Virus record (IMG/VR): IMGVR_UViG_3300012984_000012
Coordinates: 32,001 to 96,000 of that record
From: a virus
Strand: one strand, 5' to 3'
Length of the DNA: 64,000 bases
Part shown: positions 58,304-63,944 of the stretch, one piece after another
Numbering within the stretch: position 1 is the stretch's first letter
Layout: each line of letters begins with the position of its first letter
The notes under the pieces: model-generated
The model's database searches: none
Told to the model about the DNA's origin: nothing
Seen by the model: the letters and a program-made list of their open reading frames with translations, nothing else
Program-made: the position numbers and the translations under genes

Positions 58304-58369
58304 GACTTTAAATAGGTGTACACTGTCTCTTGAGTTGAATACTCTATTGTCAGATGGTACATTGCCATC

Positions 58370-58415
58370 CTGACTTAGACCCAGTGAGGGTTGTCAGAAC
58401 TTACACGGAGAGTGT
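58370..58415 (+). promoter_or_regulatory. Twin-hairpin RNA element over the RBS of NadM-Nudix
   Basis: ACCC-AGTGA-GGGT followed by ACAC-GGAGA-GTGT; repeated at 59755-59797. Confidence 0.6.
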
Positions 58416-58416
58416 C

Positions 58417-59430
58417 ATGCACGAGTTTGGGATTTACATCGGACGTTTTCAACCTGCGCACCTCGCTCACATCGCGACTGTGCGTTTTGCGCTTTCTCAG
58501 GCCAAGCGTGTCCTGATCGTCATCGGTAGCGACAACCAAGCAAGAACGATCAAGAACCCATGGACGACTGCTGAGCGCATTGCCATGATTGTCGGCGCTC
58601 TCACCCTCGAAGAGCAAGGTAGGATCACCTTCATCCCGATGCGTGATTACCTCTACAACGACAACCTCTGGATCGCTGAGATCCAACGCACCATCACGGC
58701 ACACACCGGTCCCTCAAAGGACGTCGTCCTCATCGGTCACGAAAAGGACGCTTCAAGCTTTTACTTGAAGCTGTTTCCTCAATGGACACTCATCCAGTCT
58801 GGTGTGAACATGCCAGGCGTTGACGCGACCAAGATCAGGGAGCTCATGTTTTCGCTCGACAAGATCGGCATCAAAAACTTCCTCCCAGAGAGCATTTACA
58901 ACGACGTGTGTCACTTCATGGAAATGCCTGAATTCGACAGGCTCCATGCTGAGCACCACCACATCAAAGACTATAGGTCGCAGTGGGATAGCGCTCCATT
59001 TGCACCGATGTTCGTCACGGTCGATGCGATCTGCGTCTGCAGCGGTCACGTCTTGGTCGTACGAAGGGGAGGCGAACTCGGAAGGGGCCTAATCGCATTA
59101 CCTGGCGGTTATCTCAACGGAAACGAACGAATCGTCGATGGCGCGGTACGTGAGCTTAAGGAGGAGACGGCGATCAAGATGCCCGCTCTCGAACTCAAGA
59201 AACTCATCGTTGATGAAAAGGTGTTCGATCACCCGAACAGGTCGCTTCGCGGGCGCACGATCACACATGCGTTTTGCATCAATTTGGGTCGTGGCGAGCT
59301 TCCCAAGGTAAAAGGTTCAGACGACGCCGATAAGGCGTGGTGGATGCCTCTCGACACGGTGTACTCGCAAGAGGCAAGTTTCTTCGAGGATCACTTTCAC
59401 ATCATCACGTACTTCATCAACAGGATCTGA
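58417..59430 (+). CDS. nadM: Bifunctional NMN adenylyltransferase / Nudix ADP-ribose pyrophosphatase
   Basis: GRFQPAHLAH, NPW, Nudix box GG...E.....A.RELKEET, FEDH. Confidence 0.93.
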   Translation: MHEFGIYIGRFQPAHLAHIATVRFALSQAKRVLIVIGSDNQARTIKNPWTTAERIAMIVGALTLEEQGRITFIPMRDYLYNDNLWIAEIQRTITAHTGPSKDVVLIGHEKDASSFYLKLFPQWTLIQSGVNMPGVDATKIRELMFSLDKIGIKNFLPESIYNDVCHFMEMPEFDRLHAEHHHIKDYRSQWDSAPFAPMFVTVDAICVCSGHVLVVRRGGELGRGLIALPGGYLNGNERIVDGAVRELKEETAIKMPALELKKLIVDEKVFDHPNRSLRGRTITHAFCINLGRGELPKVKGSDDADKAWWMPLDTVYSQEASFFEDHFHIITYFINRI

Positions 59431-59807
59431 TGAAACACCTGACTTGTTTCGTCGCTGGGCCATACTCGTCCAAGTACGGTTGGCCGGGCAGGGTCTATAA
59501 TGTCGCCAAGATGCTGGTGTTCGTCCGTCGCATCCTGAAGATGGGAATCATGCCAATCGGTCCGAACGCCATGTACTTTTGGTTCTCAAAGTGCCAGCCT
59601 TACGAGTTCTGGCTGCCAGGGACCCGAAGCATCCAAGAGAAGTGTGACGTCATCTTTTTCATCCCGGGTTGGAAGGTCTCTGGCGGCGCTCGTCAGGAAT
59701 ATGAGCACGCAGAATCAATCAGCCAACCCATCTTCACATCGCTACTGTCGCTAAAGGTCTTCAGTGAGAGGACCTCATCACAAAACACGGAGAGTGTGTC
59801 ATCATGA
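59430..59807 (+). CDS. DUF1937/DUF4406-like (nucleoside deoxyribosyltransferase-like fold) protein
   Basis: FVAGPYS, CDVIFFIPGWKVSGGARQE. Confidence 0.65.
   Translation: MKHLTCFVAGPYSSKYGWPGRVYNVAKMLVFVRRILKMGIMPIGPNAMYFWFSKCQPYEFWLPGTRSIQEKCDVIFFIPGWKVSGGARQEYEHAESISQPIFTSLLSLKVFSERTSSQNTESVSS
59755..59797 (+). promoter_or_regulatory. Twin-hairpin RNA element over the RBS of NAMPT
   Basis: AGGTCTTC-AGTGA-GAGGACCT followed by ACAC-GGAGA-GTGT. Confidence 0.6.
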
Positions 59808-61243
59808 AATACGCAAGAAAAAAGGACCTGGTCCTCAACAACATCAACGATACCGACAGCTATAAGTTCAGTCACTACCTTCTGTACCCAGACGACATGG
59901 AGTACATGGAGAGTTACTTCGAATCCCGAGGCGGCGAGTTCGATGAGTGCACCCTGTTTGGGATGCAGTACATCTGTCACAAGTACCTCTCGAAGAAGAT
60001 CACGTTGGAGGACATCAGCGAGATCGAGCGCGATGCGCTAGCACATGGCGAACCTTTCAATCTCGCGGGATGGCTTCACATTCTGGACAAGTACGACGGT
60101 AACCTGCCTGTGACGATCCGAGGCATCCCTGAAGGCATGATCGTGCCGGTCAAGAACGCCATCCTCGTCGTCAGAAGTCCCAGGGATAAGAGGTGTGCTT
60201 GGATCACCAATTGGATCGAGACGCTGCTGACGCGTGTTTGGTACCCGTCTGTCGTCGCCATCGGTAGCCGCGAGGTCAAGAAAGTCTGGCTGCACTACCT
60301 CCAGCTGTCCAGTGACGACCCAGCCGCAGAAATCTCTTTTAAGCACCACGATTTTGGCGGTCGTGGTGTCACGTGTCAAGAACAGGCGATGCTCGGCGGG
60401 GGAGCCCACTTGATGAGCTTCTTGGGCAGCGACACCATGGCAGGCATCAAGTGGGTGAATCACTACTACGATTGCTTGATGTCAGGATTCTCGATCCCAG
60501 CGACCGAACACTCCACGATGACGATCCGCGGCGAGGAAAACGAAGAGGAGACTGTCGTCACCTGGGTCACCAAGACGCTCGTCGAGCGCCAGGTCCCAAC
60601 CGGGATGCCCAAGCTTTCTGCTTGCGTGGGCGACAGCTGGAACATGTTCAGGTTCACGAGGATGGTCTGCCAACCTCGCATCCGAGAGCTCGTCAAAGGT
60701 TCTGGTGGCACTCTCATCGTCCGCCCGGACAGCGGTGACCCGGTCACCACGCTTCAAAAGATCTTCGACATCTTCGAAGAGTGCCTGCCTGAAGGTGAGA
60801 TCACCGTCAATCGCAAGGGTTACAAGGTTTTACCAGATTACTTCAGGATCATCTGGGGCGATGGCATCAACCGTCGTTCGATGAAGAAGATCCTACAAAC
60901 AGTCGTTGACTATGGTTGGAGCGTGTCGAACATCGCTCTAGGTTCGGGTGGAGGCCTGCTCATGGATTTCAATCGTGACACCCAGAAGCATGCCTTCAAG
61001 TGTTGCGCAGCCTGGGTCGGCGGGCGGTTGGTGCGGGTCTCGAAGAACCCAATCACCGATCCTGGCAAGAGGTCGAAAGAAGGTCGTCTAGACCTGATCA
61101 GGACTGAGAATGGTTTTGAGACCGTCATCCTCGACGATGGCGTCGACGTGCACCCGAATAGCGTCTACGTCACGTACTTTGACATCGGCGATATCTGTTA
61201 CAACACTACGGCAGACGAAGTTCGTGCCCGTATGGCAATCTGA
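59804..61243 (+). CDS. nadV: Nicotinamide phosphoribosyltransferase
   Basis: DTDSYKFSH, HDFG.RG, SIPATEHS, RPDSGDP, GDGI, GSGGGLL. Confidence 0.93.
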   Translation: MKYARKKDLVLNNINDTDSYKFSHYLLYPDDMEYMESYFESRGGEFDECTLFGMQYICHKYLSKKITLEDISEIERDALAHGEPFNLAGWLHILDKYDGNLPVTIRGIPEGMIVPVKNAILVVRSPRDKRCAWITNWIETLLTRVWYPSVVAIGSREVKKVWLHYLQLSSDDPAAEISFKHHDFGGRGVTCQEQAMLGGGAHLMSFLGSDTMAGIKWVNHYYDCLMSGFSIPATEHSTMTIRGEENEEETVVTWVTKTLVERQVPTGMPKLSACVGDSWNMFRFTRMVCQPRIRELVKGSGGTLIVRPDSGDPVTTLQKIFDIFEECLPEGEITVNRKGYKVLPDYFRIIWGDGINRRSMKKILQTVVDYGWSVSNIALGSGGGLLMDFNRDTQKHAFKCCAAWVGGRLVRVSKNPITDPGKRSKEGRLDLIRTENGFETVILDDGVDVHPNSVYVTYFDIGDICYNTTADEVRARMAI

Positions 61244-61257
61244 AACGGACAAACAAA

Positions 61258-61764
61258 ATGATAGAATACCTCGTGGGTGACGCCACCCATCCCAACGGCC
61301 CAGACGTCAAGATCATCGCACACGTTGTCAATGACATCGGTCGTTGGGGACGAGGTTTCGTCCTGTCAGTGACCAAGCGATACCCGGTCGCTGAACACGC
61401 TTATCGTGAATGGAGCAAGGGAGAAGGAGAACACCCTTCTCCGTTTGCGCTAGGTGAGACACAACTCGTGCACGTGGGTGATGGCATTCACGTTGCCAAC
61501 ATGGTCGGACAGCACGATGTCATGACAGTGAATGGCGTGCCTCCCATCAGGTACGATGCTCTAGAAAGCTGCCTGACAAAGCTAAGGATCTTTGCCAAGC
61601 TGTTGGATGCCTCTGTTCACATGCCCAGGATAGGATGTGGCCTAGCAGGTGGAAAATGGTCAGAGGTGGAGGCGATCGTCAACCGTGTCCTTGCTCACGA
61701 CGTAAGAACAGTCGTGTACGACTTCGACACGAAGGACAACAGAACGGTGCCATGGAACAAGTAG
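61258..61764 (+). CDS. Macrodomain ADP-ribose hydrolase (Poa1/TARG1/DarG-like)
   Basis: GDAT, HVVND.G.WG.GF, MPRIGCGLAGG.W. Confidence 0.88.
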   Translation: MIEYLVGDATHPNGPDVKIIAHVVNDIGRWGRGFVLSVTKRYPVAEHAYREWSKGEGEHPSPFALGETQLVHVGDGIHVANMVGQHDVMTVNGVPPIRYDALESCLTKLRIFAKLLDASVHMPRIGCGLAGGKWSEVEAIVNRVLAHDVRTVVYDFDTKDNRTVPWNK

Positions 61765-61946
61765 GGCTCACGGTTGAGGACACCGTGAAACAACTGTTAC
61801 AACAACGGTGTGATTTCTCAAAGCAGTTTGCGGCTGGTAACCAGAACGTCCAGGTCGGCATCGAGTTCATCGATAACATCCTGGGACAGATGGTCCCAGG
61901 ATACGCGCCGCCCAAGGGCTGTGGGTGTGGTTGCGATGACAAGTGA
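61752..61946 (+). CDS. Small hypothetical protein with C-terminal GCGCGC
   Basis: Overlaps the macrodomain stop. Confidence 0.45.
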   Translation: MEQVGLTVEDTVKQLLQQRCDFSKQFAAGNQNVQVGIEFIDNILGQMVPGYAPPKGCGCGCDDK

Positions 61947-61956
61947 ATCTTGGGCC

Positions 61957-61985
61957 TGTACAACGGCACGAAGAAGGATTACTTA
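61957..61985 (+). promoter_or_regulatory. Promoter TGTACA-N17-TACTTA for the Pth/CoaE/tRNA operon
   Basis: Intergenic; 6 nt before ATG 61992. Confidence 0.5.
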
Positions 61986-62114
61986 CTAGACATGCTACGA
62001 GAGTTGTGAATGCAAGGCGGTTGAACCGCAGTGTCTTGCGCGAGGACCTCCTCGACTAACACGTTCCGATCAGTTCGCTGTACGTGTTTTGTTTTGAGAT
62101 GAAAGAGGTCTATT

Positions 62115-62507
62115 ATGCTCACTGGTATTCAAGTTCTTCGTGCTAAGGTTCGTGGCCTGCAAGCTGCAGGTATTTCCATTCACAATCGTATTCGTAAGGC
62201 AAAAGGTCCGAAGCGAAACAAGCTGTGGGATGACAAGCGTACGCTCGGCAGTTACAGTCGGGAACACCTGATTGCTTACGGGTTGATGCGTGGCGTCCCG
62301 TATGATAGGATCGAAAGATGCGCAAAGGGAAACCAACCAAACGCTCGAACACTGTTCGAGCTGATGAAGGCTCACGCCGATTGGAAAATGGCAAGGGAGC
62401 TCACCCTCGAAAAGGTCGAGGCGCTGCTGACGCCGTCAACCGAGCCAGTTCCTCGGTCAAACAGGCTCATGCGAAGGGCTCAAAAGGCCCTCGAAAAAAG
62501 CGCGTGA
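62115..62507 (+). CDS. Basic phage hypothetical protein
   Basis: GAGG RBS; REHLIAYGLMRGVPYDRIE. Confidence 0.65.
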   Translation: MLTGIQVLRAKVRGLQAAGISIHNRIRKAKGPKRNKLWDDKRTLGSYSREHLIAYGLMRGVPYDRIERCAKGNQPNARTLFELMKAHADWKMARELTLEKVEALLTPSTEPVPRSNRLMRRAQKALEKSA

Positions 62508-62515
62508 GGCAAGCC

Positions 62516-62857
62516 ATGGCCACCATTAAGATGGGCGACAAGCTCTTTCTAGTGACACGTCGTGACATCGCGCCTGGTTATCAGGCCGTCCAGTCGTGTC
62601 ACGCCATGAGGCAGTTCACCGCTGATCATCCTGAGGTCGATAACGACTGGTTCGCGAAATCAAATTACCTAGCGCTGTTGTCAGTCGACAACGAGATCGA
62701 GCTGATGAGGCTCCTCGTTGCCGCTACCGATGCTGGGTTAAGGTCATCTGCGTTTCGCGAACCAGACGTCGGTGGAGCCATCACCGCTATCGCCATCGAG
62801 CCACACCCAAAAGCAGCAGAGTTGTGTAAATCGTTACCCCTGGCCCTTAAGGTCTGA
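62516..62857 (+). CDS. Peptidyl-tRNA hydrolase PTH2-like protein
   Basis: KLFLVTRRDI..G...VQSCHA, FREPD....TAIA. Confidence 0.7.
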   Translation: MATIKMGDKLFLVTRRDIAPGYQAVQSCHAMRQFTADHPEVDNDWFAKSNYLALLSVDNEIELMRLLVAATDAGLRSSAFREPDVGGAITAIAIEPHPKAAELCKSLPLALKV

Positions 62858-62872
62858 TCAGGTAACGAGAAA

Positions 62873-63508
62873 ATGATGACCGAGCTCGATCGCACTTCGT
62901 TGAAGGTTTTTGGCCTGACTGGTGGGATTGCTAGCGGCAAGAGCACCGTCAGTCGGCTCTGGGCAAAGTGGGGAGTTCCCATCGTTGACGCTGACCTGGT
63001 GTCACGCCAGGTGATGGTCCCGGGAGCTCCCGCCTTCAATGCTATCATCGAGTGTTTTGGGCTCGAGATAGTGACACCCACGGGTGAGATCGACAGGAAG
63101 GCTTTGGGAAGCATCGTTTTTAGCGACAGCAAGAAACGAGCGTTGCTCAACTCAATAGTACACCCGAGGATCGCAAGCCAGACTCGAGCCATGTTCTCAG
63201 AGCTTCGTAGCAGCGGTGAAAAGCTAGCGTGTTATGACGCCCCGCTGTTGATCGAAGGCGGATTTGCAGCCGCTTTCAGGCCACTCGTCGTCGTCACGGT
63301 CCCGCCTGACGTTCAATTAAACAGGGTCATGGCCCGAGATGACCTGACTGAACAAGAGGCAAGATCTCGGATCTCGGCTCAGATGTCGCAGGACGCAAAG
63401 GTCGAGAAGGCTGACATCGTGATCAACAACGATGACGACCTATCAATGTTGATGTTTCGTGCTCGTCAGGCTCTTGACAGGGTGATGCAGATGGTTTCGG
63501 TCCCGTAG
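62873..63508 (+). CDS. coaE: Dephospho-CoA kinase
   Basis: GLTGGIASGKST, DAD, HPRI, DAPLL, RISAQ. Confidence 0.93.
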   Translation: MMTELDRTSLKVFGLTGGIASGKSTVSRLWAKWGVPIVDADLVSRQVMVPGAPAFNAIIECFGLEIVTPTGEIDRKALGSIVFSDSKKRALLNSIVHPRIASQTRAMFSELRSSGEKLACYDAPLLIEGGFAAAFRPLVVVTVPPDVQLNRVMARDDLTEQEARSRISAQMSQDAKVEKADIVINNDDDLSMLMFRARQALDRVMQMVSVP

Positions 63509-63571
63509 CTCAGCGGTAGAGCATTCGGATTTCAACCCGATTTGTCGTGGGTTCGACCCCCACCGGGATCA
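63499..63571 (+). tRNA. tRNA-like gene with atypical 8-nt anticodon loop (TTC / TTCA / TCA)
   Basis: Acceptor GGTCCCG/CGGGATC, D-arm GCTC/GAGC, T-arm GTGGG-TTCGACC-CCCAC; overlaps the coaE stop; CCA not encoded. Confidence 0.85.
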
Positions 63572-63574
63572 CAC

Positions 63575-63646
63575 GCTCTCATAGCCTAGAGGTCAGGCAA
63601 TCGGATTTCAACCCGAGTGACACAGGTTCGAACCCTGTTGAGAGCG
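63575..63646 (+). tRNA. tRNA-Glu-like gene with the same 8-nt anticodon loop
   Basis: Acceptor GCTCTCA/TGAGAGC, G73, D-arm GCCT-AGAGGTC-AGGC, 4-nt variable loop, T-arm ACAGG-TTCGAAC-CCTGT. Confidence 0.85.
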
Positions 63647-63650
63647 CAAG

Positions 63651-63944
63651 ATGGACGACAAGGCATACATCTGCGACGGGTGTGGTGAGAGGATCACTGA
63701 CGAAGAGCTGGTCATCTCTGAGACAGATCCTGACCTGTGGAAACACCCGTTCCGTGAGGTGTGCCTGAAGATCCGAGAGCAGAACAGTGAGCCAACCCCT
63801 CCAGCCCAGCTGTACCACCAGCGTCACGGCTATAACCGGTTAACCCGTCGCACAGAGCCCTATTTATGTGGGACGTTGCATCTCGAGACTGAGCAAGAGT
63901 ACTTCATCCACTGGATTGGGTATGGGATGAAGATTGATACCTGA
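63651..63944 (+). CDS. Hypothetical protein
   Basis: 97 aa, CDGC...C...CG. Confidence 0.5.
   Translation: MDDKAYICDGCGERITDEELVISETDPDLWKHPFREVCLKIREQNSEPTPPAQLYHQRHGYNRLTRRTEPYLCGTLHLETEQEYFIHWIGYGMKIDT

Follow-up and report, generated by a model that had tools for sequence, protein, structure and literature searches.

To our knowledge, four-base decoding is known from laboratory suppressor mutants and engineered tRNAs and not as a conserved wild-type genetic programme. The frameshift suppressors sufD, sufA6/SufB2 and sufJ are familiar examples, and short leaders are familiar from the leader-peptide attenuation of trp and his and from the +1 autoregulation of prfB. A 2020 review of non-canonical natural tRNAs gives, in its accessible part, eight-nucleotide anticodon loops only for yeast mitochondria, and the words phage, quadruplet and frameshift are absent from that part (PMC7609411). 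The motif RGPP is presented as the strongest, most robust and least context-dependent arrest motif, refractory to EF-P, in a paper whose available part mentions 'phage', 'suppressor' and 'frameshift' 0 times (PMC12992588). In the literature covered, which did not take in subscription journals, we found no account of quadruplet tRNAs natural to phages, nor of arrest leaders gated by a tRNA. Here we analyzed two tandem tRNA genes, tRNA1 and tRNA2, which carry the same eight-nucleotide (8-nt) anticodon loop, together with a short leader that starts 1.5 kb upstream of the pair. They lie in a 64,000-nt stretch (the window) that covers positions 32001-96000 of the 129,880-bp virus record IMGVR_UViG_3300012984_000012 (52.7% G+C; soil metagenomes). 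We hold it as fairly probable, the mechanism being taken as a whole, that both tRNAs are wild-type quadruplet (+1) decoders of UGAA which gate an arrest-peptide switch.

Both genes were called by ARAGORN and were scored by the Rfam tRNA model (RF00005) at 55.2 bits for tRNA1 and 51.4 bits for tRNA2, above the gathering score of 29, which places them in the tRNA family. They share the 16-mer TCGGATTTCAACCCGA, that is TCGG, ATTTCAAC and CCGA, which occurs exactly twice in the window (63525-63540 and 63601-63616); two matches were reached in 0 of 100 dinucleotide shuffles. The acceptor, D and T arms and the discriminator base differ between tRNA1 and tRNA2, and the arms are intact in both. ARAGORN reports each gene as 'tRNA-?(Glu|SeC)(tc)' and names no anticodon; the '(tc)' label appears because the loop is closed by an A x C non-pair, and the bases in its fold are the same eight unpaired AUUUCAAC on four Watson-Crick pairs. 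A 7-nt loop would require a C x C mismatch in either gene, and the seven-base loop on a five-pair stem of a standard tRNA is present in neither. From the D stem to the T stem each gene is one base longer than a standard tRNA of its variable-loop class. An initial annotation, made from the letters alone, had pointed to the shared 16-mer, the divergent and intact arms, the four-pair stem with its 8-nt loop and the C-C mismatch of the shorter loop, and had proposed ARAGORN as a check of the fold; these points hold, but the mismatch which it placed at the top of the stem is not there, since the unpaired layer of the five-layer stem is the bottom one, 27-43 (T x T in tRNA1, A x G in tRNA2). It had also proposed to look for the 16-mer in other phage tRNAs. 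That search gave 22 matches in IMG/VR with 0 inside a tRNA, for which reason the matches are ascribed to chance and the exact 16-mer was rejected as a mark of the family.

Other direct searches were equally unspecific. A 19-nt degenerate pattern of the 5′ part of tRNA1 was rejected, as it matched mostly tRNA-Met genes of other phages, plus one relative, G008. With the region and the individual tRNAs as queries, blastn against 50,697 phage records gave no homologous locus and only generic tRNA-body matches, annotated Gly, Lys, Arg, Gln, Phe and others. ARAGORN reported four-base anticodons in two other viral tRNAs (L125:9370-9446 and L176:4671-4744), given as (tgag) and (gaaa).

Homologues were therefore reached via the neighbouring proteins, the terminase and a Pth2-like protein, and not via the 16-mer. 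The large terminase (TerL) gave 124 relatives. Ten long records among them were searched, and G008, a 73-kb relative syntenic with the window locus, was alone in having a pair of odd-loop tRNAs; in the other nine, ordinary tRNAs were found in G003 and G001, including a normal tRNA-Glu in G001. CoaE was also tried as a handle, with no relative confirmed. With the Pth2-like protein as handle, all 18 close relatives have one or two tRNAs 0.1-1.9 kb downstream (29 in total), and a profile search raised the IMG/VR relatives to 58 loci. From these other metagenomes 28 distinct arms containing an invariant UUCAA were aligned, and the extra loop base is present in 28 of 28, as in both window genes. 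When the arms are read with an 8-nt loop, 82.9% of the cells are paired and the covariation is 0.612, a value reached by 0 of 500 shuffles, with changes on both sides at 5 of 5 stem pairs. When they are read in the 7-nt 'Glu' register, 55.0% are paired, the covariation is 0.179 (reached by 123 of 500 shuffles) and a C x C is near-constant. The loop follows the pattern N-Y-UUCA-A-N, i.e. two bases, UUCA and two bases, with U at position 2 in 18 of the arms and C there in the other 10.

These results bear on whether the genes could be decaying tRNA pseudogenes or an artefact of assembly, as an anticodon stem of only four pairs and the lack of a named anticodon might suggest. The other arms are intact, the Rfam scores stand at 55 and 51 bits, and all 28 distinct relatives keep the extra base and UUCAA while their stems change in a compensatory manner, so that the argument against random decay first drawn from the two divergent bodies is borne out. 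Logan contigs of run X4, which belongs to a different study, are letter-identical over 63485-63700 and 61900-62189 (both tRNAs and the leader); because of this identity and the extra base of the relatives, an assembly slip is disfavoured. The 8-nt loop of tRNA1 and tRNA2 is real, decay or assembly error is very unlikely as its cause, and we give next to no credence to the pair being pseudogenes or artefacts. Contigs of run X6 (an RNA library, sediment metatranscriptome), which come from a relative of about 90% identity, span the leader, pth2, coaE and both tRNAs; being assembled contigs, their presence in an RNA library is no sign of transcription. In this relative T63601C and A63616G together turn one pair of the tRNA2 anticodon stem from U-A to C-G, and a 12-nt frame-keeping deletion follows 62026, between the hairpin and RGPP of the leader. 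Runs X5 and X7-X10 gave small shares only, those of X5 being short generic tRNA or CoaE pieces; the parts of the stretch left uncovered by X4, X5 and X6 carry no meaning.

The same arms were weighed for a function as tRNA-Glu(UUC) substitutes or decoys, which would evade or soak up a host anticodon nuclease while the match to the leader would be incidental. A Glu-type tRNA body has a characteristic D arm, a 4-nt variable region and discriminator G; tRNA2 has discriminator G and, if its loop has 8 nt, a variable region of 4 nt. The acceptor stem of tRNA1 resembles that of the canonical phage tRNA-Glu of G001, whose loop CUUUCAA holds UUC-A-A as the window loops do, and several relatives are labelled Glu by ARAGORN. 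The nearest BLAST neighbours of the tRNA bodies are annotated Arg, Gln, Gly, Lys or Met. The genes also stand beside a Pth2-like gene and genes for salvage of nicotinamide adenine dinucleotide (NAD), and NAD-salvage genes of the NMN adenylyltransferase-Nudix/NAMPT kind act as counter-defence. One source, in its available part, puts forward evasion of tRNA-targeting defences as a role of phage tRNAs whose anticodon loops are altered (PMC10264068). A tRNA-Glu(UUC) has U33 followed by UUC in a 7-nt loop, and this arrangement is absent here: C and not U precedes UUC in 10 of the 28 related loops, and the 7-nt register carries its near-constant C x C with no covariation. The reading would moreover leave unexplained the matching leader codons at loci with CUA, UUA and UUAU tRNAs. 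No finding here requires a nuclease-resistant substitute or decoy, and we regard this role as quite unlikely.

What the loops may read is indicated by the leader (Table 1), a small open reading frame (ORF) that encodes MLREL and ends in UGA followed by A. Within 61992-62010, UGAA is the only four-base word that matches the central UUCA of the tRNAs. The frame of the downstream RGPP codons contains no ATG, GTG or TTG after its last stop (TAG, 61987-89); being closed and start-less, it is enterable only from the leader ORF by a +1 move within 61992-62010. If the leader UGA is read through in frame, a second in-frame stop is met 4 codons later and RGPP is never reached. RGPP thus stands towards the end of a short upstream ORF that is followed by a gene on the same strand (ATG 62115), as in known arrest leaders, and the R-[AG]-P-P leader layout is common to 25 distinct loci. 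No long hydrophobic stretch was seen by eye in the peptide of about 20 residues. The six frames of the genome hold 8 R[AG]PP motifs. Another start-less R[AG]PP site with TGAA in the open stretch upstream lies on the minus strand at genome position 31008, and the exact word TGAATGCAA occurs once more in the genome, on the minus strand at 116372, in a different sequence context.

The UGA is immediately succeeded by an AUG (UGAAUG), and AUG follows UGAA in 16 of 17 distinct loci (ACG in L157); this AUG opens a mini-ORF of 3-8 codons. The hairpin located 6 nt past UGAA is likely to be stimulatory. In 9 distinct sequences 100% of its cells pair, and 12 of the 17 loci have it at the same spacing. 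In the window the hairpin loop contains a second UGAA (62022-62025), in frame with the restart ATG 62010. A further downstream UGAA leading into the same RGPP frame is found in the window and in 6 other of the 17 distinct loci, and it is possible that it gives a second chance after termination and restart. In front of the leader, most relatives likewise have CTGTACA and a TAnnnT box in this position. The genome contains few copies of CTGTACA (9 sites, 5 on the plus and 4 on the minus strand), and the promoter-like element was not called by the consensus scan; from its sequence and position, the element at 61955-61985 would serve as a promoter. In L132-L153 the CCTGTACA box is followed after 16-19 nt by a TAnnnT box that ends 5-8 nt before the leader ATG, without a Shine-Dalgarno (SD) sequence. 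Because ATG 61992 has no SD before it either, the leader may be translated from a leaderless mRNA.

Comparison of the leader with the neighbouring tRNA across relatives links codon and anticodon. After removal of the near-duplicates L133, L135, L154, L155 and L158 and of L146, which has no upstream sequence, all 17 distinct loci with a UUCA tRNA have an ATG-started leader ending in TGAA and a start-less RGPP in the +1 frame, so that UUCA faces a complementary UGAA exactly where a +1 move restores the open frame. Of 25 distinct loci, 24 have an RxPP frame that lacks any ATG, GTG or TTG beyond its last stop, and in the 25th the only such codon stands just before R. R-[GA]-P-P is conserved, yet it is spelled with each of the six Arg codons, with four Gly codons (or Ala) and with several Pro codons, third positions varying at G/A and P, which shows selection on the peptide and not only on the RNA. 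Where the tRNA differs, the leader differs as well. At the five loci with a CUA tRNA (L140, L150, L151, L160, L168), a UAG stands in frame 2-5 codons ahead of RGPP or RAPP; L170 combines a UUA tRNA with an in-frame UAA leader, and L182 a UCA tRNA of normal 17-nt anticodon arm with an in-frame UGA leader. In L148 the 8-nt loop is GG-UUAU-GU and the leader ATG-TCG-ATAA leads by +1 into RGPP. A tree of the short Pth2 protein requires at least 7 changes of the combined codon/anticodon class, and on it the CUA loci fall within the UGAA clade, L144 being the sister of L151/L152 with support 95. The independent pairs all go the same way, 3 of 3 on well-supported branches and five when all branches are used.

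This co-variation also bears on a tRNA-independent +1 shift at UGA-A, by release-factor-limited slippage, with the tRNAs serving some other purpose. The stop codon at which the shift would occur and the hairpin close by do recall programmed +1 sites, of which prfB is the example. The codon before UGA, on the other hand, varies among TTG, TTC, CTC, GCC and GGC, and because no slippery codon able to re-pair in +1 is conserved at that P-site position, slippage of the prfB type is disfavoured. The site further becomes in-frame UAG, UAA or UGA, or AUAA, exactly where the neighbouring tRNA changes, and we judge such slippage highly improbable.

The tRNAs could instead be in-frame opal suppressors, reading the triplet UCA with the extra base placed 5′ in the loop and giving general read-through of UGA in the manner of the suppressor tRNAs of recoded phages; opal suppression was among the readings of the initial annotation. 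In that arrangement N-Y-U-UCA-A-N keeps U before and A after UCA, neither of which varies in any of the 28 arms; in relatives this locus has ordinary suppressor-type tRNAs (CUA, UUA or UCA), L168 combines an 8-nt loop with an in-frame leader, and the yeast mitochondrial tRNA-Thr1 is described, in the accessible parts of its sources, as reading triplets with an 8-nt loop (PMC7609411, PMC3113583). An opal suppressor has UCA at 34-36 of a 7-nt loop, and the window loops have 8 nt. An in-frame read of UGA stops 4 codons on, all 17 distinct loci place RGPP in the +1 frame, and in L182, the sole relative whose leader has UGA in frame, the tRNA arm is of normal length. The genome shows no sign of recoding either: in a crude gene set the coding share is 93% under translation table 11, and genes end most often in TGA (71 of 119; TAG 27, TAA 21). 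Genes broken by in-frame TGA with TGA rare as a stop, as expected of a recoded genome, are not seen, nor is stop-codon recoding seen elsewhere across this gene set. Plain opal suppression is therefore unlikely. Among the four-base words initially proposed, UGAA finds its counterpart in the conserved +1 site of the operon's own leader, with codon and anticodon co-varying, although its label as a 'Glu' codon is unsupported; GAAA finds no support, as no conserved GAAA occurs in the leader window and CUUC is found in 10 of the 28 loops where UUUC would be needed.

A target for the arrest is indicated by RNA folding. In the minimum free energy fold of 62035-62126 (-23.8 kcal/mol) the RGPP codons pair with the SD sequence of the next gene, the bases of which are unpaired with a probability of 0.00-0.01. 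When 62035-62062 is blocked, which mimics a ribosome stalled with the Pro codons in its P and A sites, the fold falls to -9.9 kcal/mol and the SD becomes partly free. Pairing between RxPP codons and SD, with at least 5 (mostly 9-11) of the 12 RxPP-codon bases, was found in 18 of 23 relatives when the first ATG of the downstream ORF was taken as the start and the 18 nt before it as the region. Of the other five, at least L143 and L182 pair in the same way with a GGAGG that lies a little further downstream, a hint that the automatic start calls are too early. In these models the stall site appears to be placed so as to free the downstream ribosome-binding site. No intrinsic terminator was called after the leader by the terminator scan, and the inner hairpin together with a U-rich run may act as an attenuator.

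Taken together, the proposed mechanism would run as follows. Once a tRNA of the pair is expressed, processed, charged and delivered, it would outcompete the release factor at UGA-A and the ribosome would move by +1, either by a true four-base read or by a triplet read with a +1 step on translocation, between which the sequence cannot distinguish. The shifted ribosome would make a 20-residue peptide ending in RGPP, and on stalling at the RGPP codons it would cover the bases that mask the SD of the next gene. This unmasking would turn on translation of a 130-amino-acid protein and probably also of the coupled Pth2-like hydrolase and CoaE. When the tRNA is lacking, the ribosome would stop after MLREL and the genes would remain masked. 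The module would thereby report the activity of the phage's own odd tRNAs and tie the expression of Pth2 to that activity. As for the gain, one idea is that a reader of UGAA disturbs other UGA-A stops (including 11 of the phage's own) and for this reason has a peptidyl-tRNA hydrolase coupled to its activity; alternatively, the tRNAs may act as sentinels of host tRNA processing, of charging or of tRNA-targeting defences. The neighbourhood, with NAD salvage, a phosphatase-like gene, Pth2 and CoaE or a tRNA-binding protein, would suit a counter-defence island. A wider reading, which we put forward tentatively and as less likely than not, is that a widespread family of large environmental phages uses true four-base codons (UGAA; AUAA in one relative) with wild-type tRNAs of 2+4+2 loops. 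The private codon would then be the lock on an arrest switch over the Pth2-like hydrolase and its helical partner, the two tRNA bodies would report two charging or processing routes, and the switch would fire only if the host tRNA machinery is intact or has just been attacked.

The synteny of the module in related phages and the frame-keeping deletion of the X6 relative speak for the quadruplet switch; several observations weigh against it. An efficient reader of UGAA would hit the phage's own stops, because TGA ends 71 of 119 genes and 11 of these end in TGAA. L168 has an 18-nt arm with the 8-nt loop GUUCUAAU and yet an in-frame UAG leader, from which it follows that an 8-nt loop in this Pth2-linked tRNA family need not mean a +1 read; it is possible that the extra base of L168 is a homopolymer error in the contig. 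The leader of L148 also holds UGAA and is readable as an in-frame UAA leader, and a UUCA tRNA was not found in its 146-kb fragment (estimated to be 39% complete). The sign test on the 3 of 3 independent pairs gives p = 0.25, the pairs being too few for significance. No R[AG]PP leader was recovered by regular expression at 27 of 59 Pth2 loci; the ten of these that were inspected show other designs, e.g. in-frame stops where the upstream gene and pth2 begin, and two further Pth2 loci have no upstream sequence. The covariation of the hairpin after UGAA is modest, consisting of one compensatory G-C/C-G pair with a score reached by 10 of 500 shuffles, and the whole leader folds with no greater stability than shuffles do (z = -0.08).

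Table 1. Features of the leader, the downstream genes and the tRNA pair, in window coordinates.
Feature	Position	Strand	Details
Promoter-like element CCTGTACA-17 nt-TACTTA	61955..61985	+	Ends 6 nt before leader ATG; sequence reading
Leader ORF ATG-CTA-CGA-GAG-TTG (MLREL) + UGA-A	61992..62010	+	Proposed four-base codon UGAA at 62007-62010
Hairpin GCGG-TTGAA-CCGC	62017..62029	+	6 nt past UGAA
+1-frame stretch CKAVEPQCLA-RGPP-...-stop	62011..62097	+	RGPP codons 62041-62052; stop 62095-97
Sequestering stem (predicted)	62042..62114	+	RGPP codons 62045-62050 pair with SD GAGGUC 62105-62110 of next gene
Inner hairpin	62058-62064 / 62082-62088	+	Predicted fold
130-amino-acid protein	62115..62507	+	First gene under leader; ATG 18 nt past arrest-frame stop
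Pth2-like protein (peptidyl-tRNA hydrolase fold)	62516..62857	+	Own ATG and GAGG
Dephospho-CoA kinase (CoaE)	62873..63508	+	PF01121, 192 bits; last 10 nt overlap tRNA1
tRNA1	63499-63571	+	Discriminator A; anticodon arm T x T, then TCGG/CCGA; ARAGORN, Rfam
tRNA1 8-nt loop AUUUCAAC	63529-63536	+	Central UUCA 63531-63534
tRNA2	63575-63646	+	Discriminator G; anticodon arm A x G, then TCGG/CCGA; ARAGORN, Rfam
tRNA2 8-nt loop	63605-63612	+	Central UUCA 63607-63610

The genes under the leader were further characterized. Homologues of the 130-amino-acid protein lie between leader and pth2 in 24 loci and are always paired with a Pth2-like gene; R49, A54, Y55 and E67 are invariant. The protein has no match in Pfam, PHROG or the Atlas and no Foldseek match in the PDB at E <= 0.001, and its AlphaFold model is all-helical, with a long helical hairpin and small helices (predicted local distance difference test score 89.8). 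The Pth2-like protein matches PF01981 with 30 bits (cut-off 23) over residues 9-100 and phrog_1866 with 61.6 bits, and its hydrolase activity is a prediction. Directly upstream of the leader, at 58354-61764, lies the NAD-salvage pair, NMN adenylyltransferase-Nudix and NAMPT (with an N-terminal domain), followed by a 168-amino-acid gene that matches a PHROG annotated 'phosphatase' and no Pfam family. The order in G008 is glycan genes, NAMPT, phosphatase-like gene, counterpart of the 168-amino-acid gene, homologue of the 130-amino-acid protein, Pth2-like gene, gene with a tRNA-binding domain, tRNA, HNH and tRNA; the counterpart of the 168-amino-acid gene was aligned by eye. In the place of CoaE, before the odd tRNAs, G008 has a Trbp111/EMAP-type tRNA_bind gene (PF01588, 79 bits; L131:11719-12108), and an HNH endonuclease ORF (L131:12416-12892) lies between its two tRNAs.

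A more distant clade (L156, L159, L162-L165) has tRNA-Thr gene runs upstream of pth2 (about 900-1500 in each), the arms of which show a five-pair stem with a 9-nt loop, e.g. a C...C non-pair flanking a normal 7-nt loop. In this clade pth2 and the preceding gene start with few codons and then an in-frame stop, and the neighbouring tRNAs are CUA. No Pth2 relatives were found by the pattern method in 185,579 species genomes, and hence no host or prophage lead was obtained. In the genome as a whole TGAA closes 11 crude genes and is not depleted. A long +1 continuation follows one of these 11 (genome 76141-76869), which was rejected as a further target as its own GTG start and SD explain it. Outside the window ARAGORN reports a transfer-messenger RNA gene on the minus strand (G000:C1:25321-25688) with the tag peptide ANDNGTAPLALVA, and six ordinary tRNA genes (Ile-UAU, two Gly and three Ser) are clustered at the contig end, at 126.2-129.7 kb.

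The value of the locus lies in its compactness and recurrence. The tRNA, its cis target, a likely stimulatory hairpin, the arrest motif and the masked ribosome-binding site all stand within 1.7 kb, and the parts of the module co-vary across dozens of independent metagenomic phages. An old question thus becomes directly testable, namely whether natural ribosomes are able to use dedicated quadruplet decoders and whether four bases are then read at once or three with a slip. If the mechanism is true, a private tRNA would be a new input to arrest-peptide regulation, there would be a reason why many large phages carry Pth2-like genes beside odd tRNAs, and ready-made, naturally optimised quadruplet tRNA/codon pairs would be at hand for genetic-code expansion.

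In comparison with described systems, the tRNA pair is probably a natural variant of frameshift-suppressor tRNAs inside a proposed regulatory circuit for which we found no description. As in trp and his attenuation and in prfB, the outcome of a short leader would track one translation component and set downstream expression; those systems use ordinary tRNAs, or release factor 2 and a slippery codon, whereas here a dedicated operon tRNA with an expanded loop is proposed. Like the recoded phages, which in the available parts of their sources encode their own stop-reading tRNAs (10.1101/2021.08.26.457843, PMC9523058, PMC10879173), this phage encodes a putative stop reader, and its relatives carry CUA, UUA and UCA tRNAs; unlike theirs, the window genome is not recoded, the loop is of 8 nt and no target is evident other than a regulatory leader requiring +1. 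The yeast mitochondrial tRNA-Thr1 is likewise a natural tRNA with an 8-nt anticodon loop, but in the accessible parts of the same two sources (PMC7609411, PMC3113583) it reads CUN triplets in frame and reassigns a sense box, with no frameshift and no leader. With the RAPP/RGPP leaders ApdA, ApdP and ApcA, which follow the SecM paradigm, the locus shares the small upstream ORF, the R-[AG]-P-P near its end, the same-strand gene and the expectation, here a prediction, that arrest opens a masked ribosome-binding site; those leaders, as far as the available parts of the sources go (PMC12992588, PMC10951233, PMC7897499), sense secretion or insertion into the membrane and have a start in their own frame, unlike the start-less arrest frame of the window, which would be entered only via the proposed tRNA-dependent recoding and encodes a peptide of about 20 residues. 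There is also a likeness to sufD, sufA6/SufB2, sufJ and engineered quadruplet tRNAs (UAGN etc.), which have an 8-nt loop with one extra base too (accessible parts of PMC4764823, PMC9094753, PMC4238358 and 10.1101/2020.12.31.424971); in the window loops U precedes and A follows the four bases. As in the frameshift suppressors, the four loop bases are complementary to a four-base site where +1 restores the frame. Those tRNAs arose as laboratory mutants or by design and serve to correct accidental frameshifts or to incorporate unnatural residues, whereas the window tRNAs are wild-type, conserved across many phage lineages, usually as two bodies, and paired with a conserved, putatively dedicated target in their own operon.

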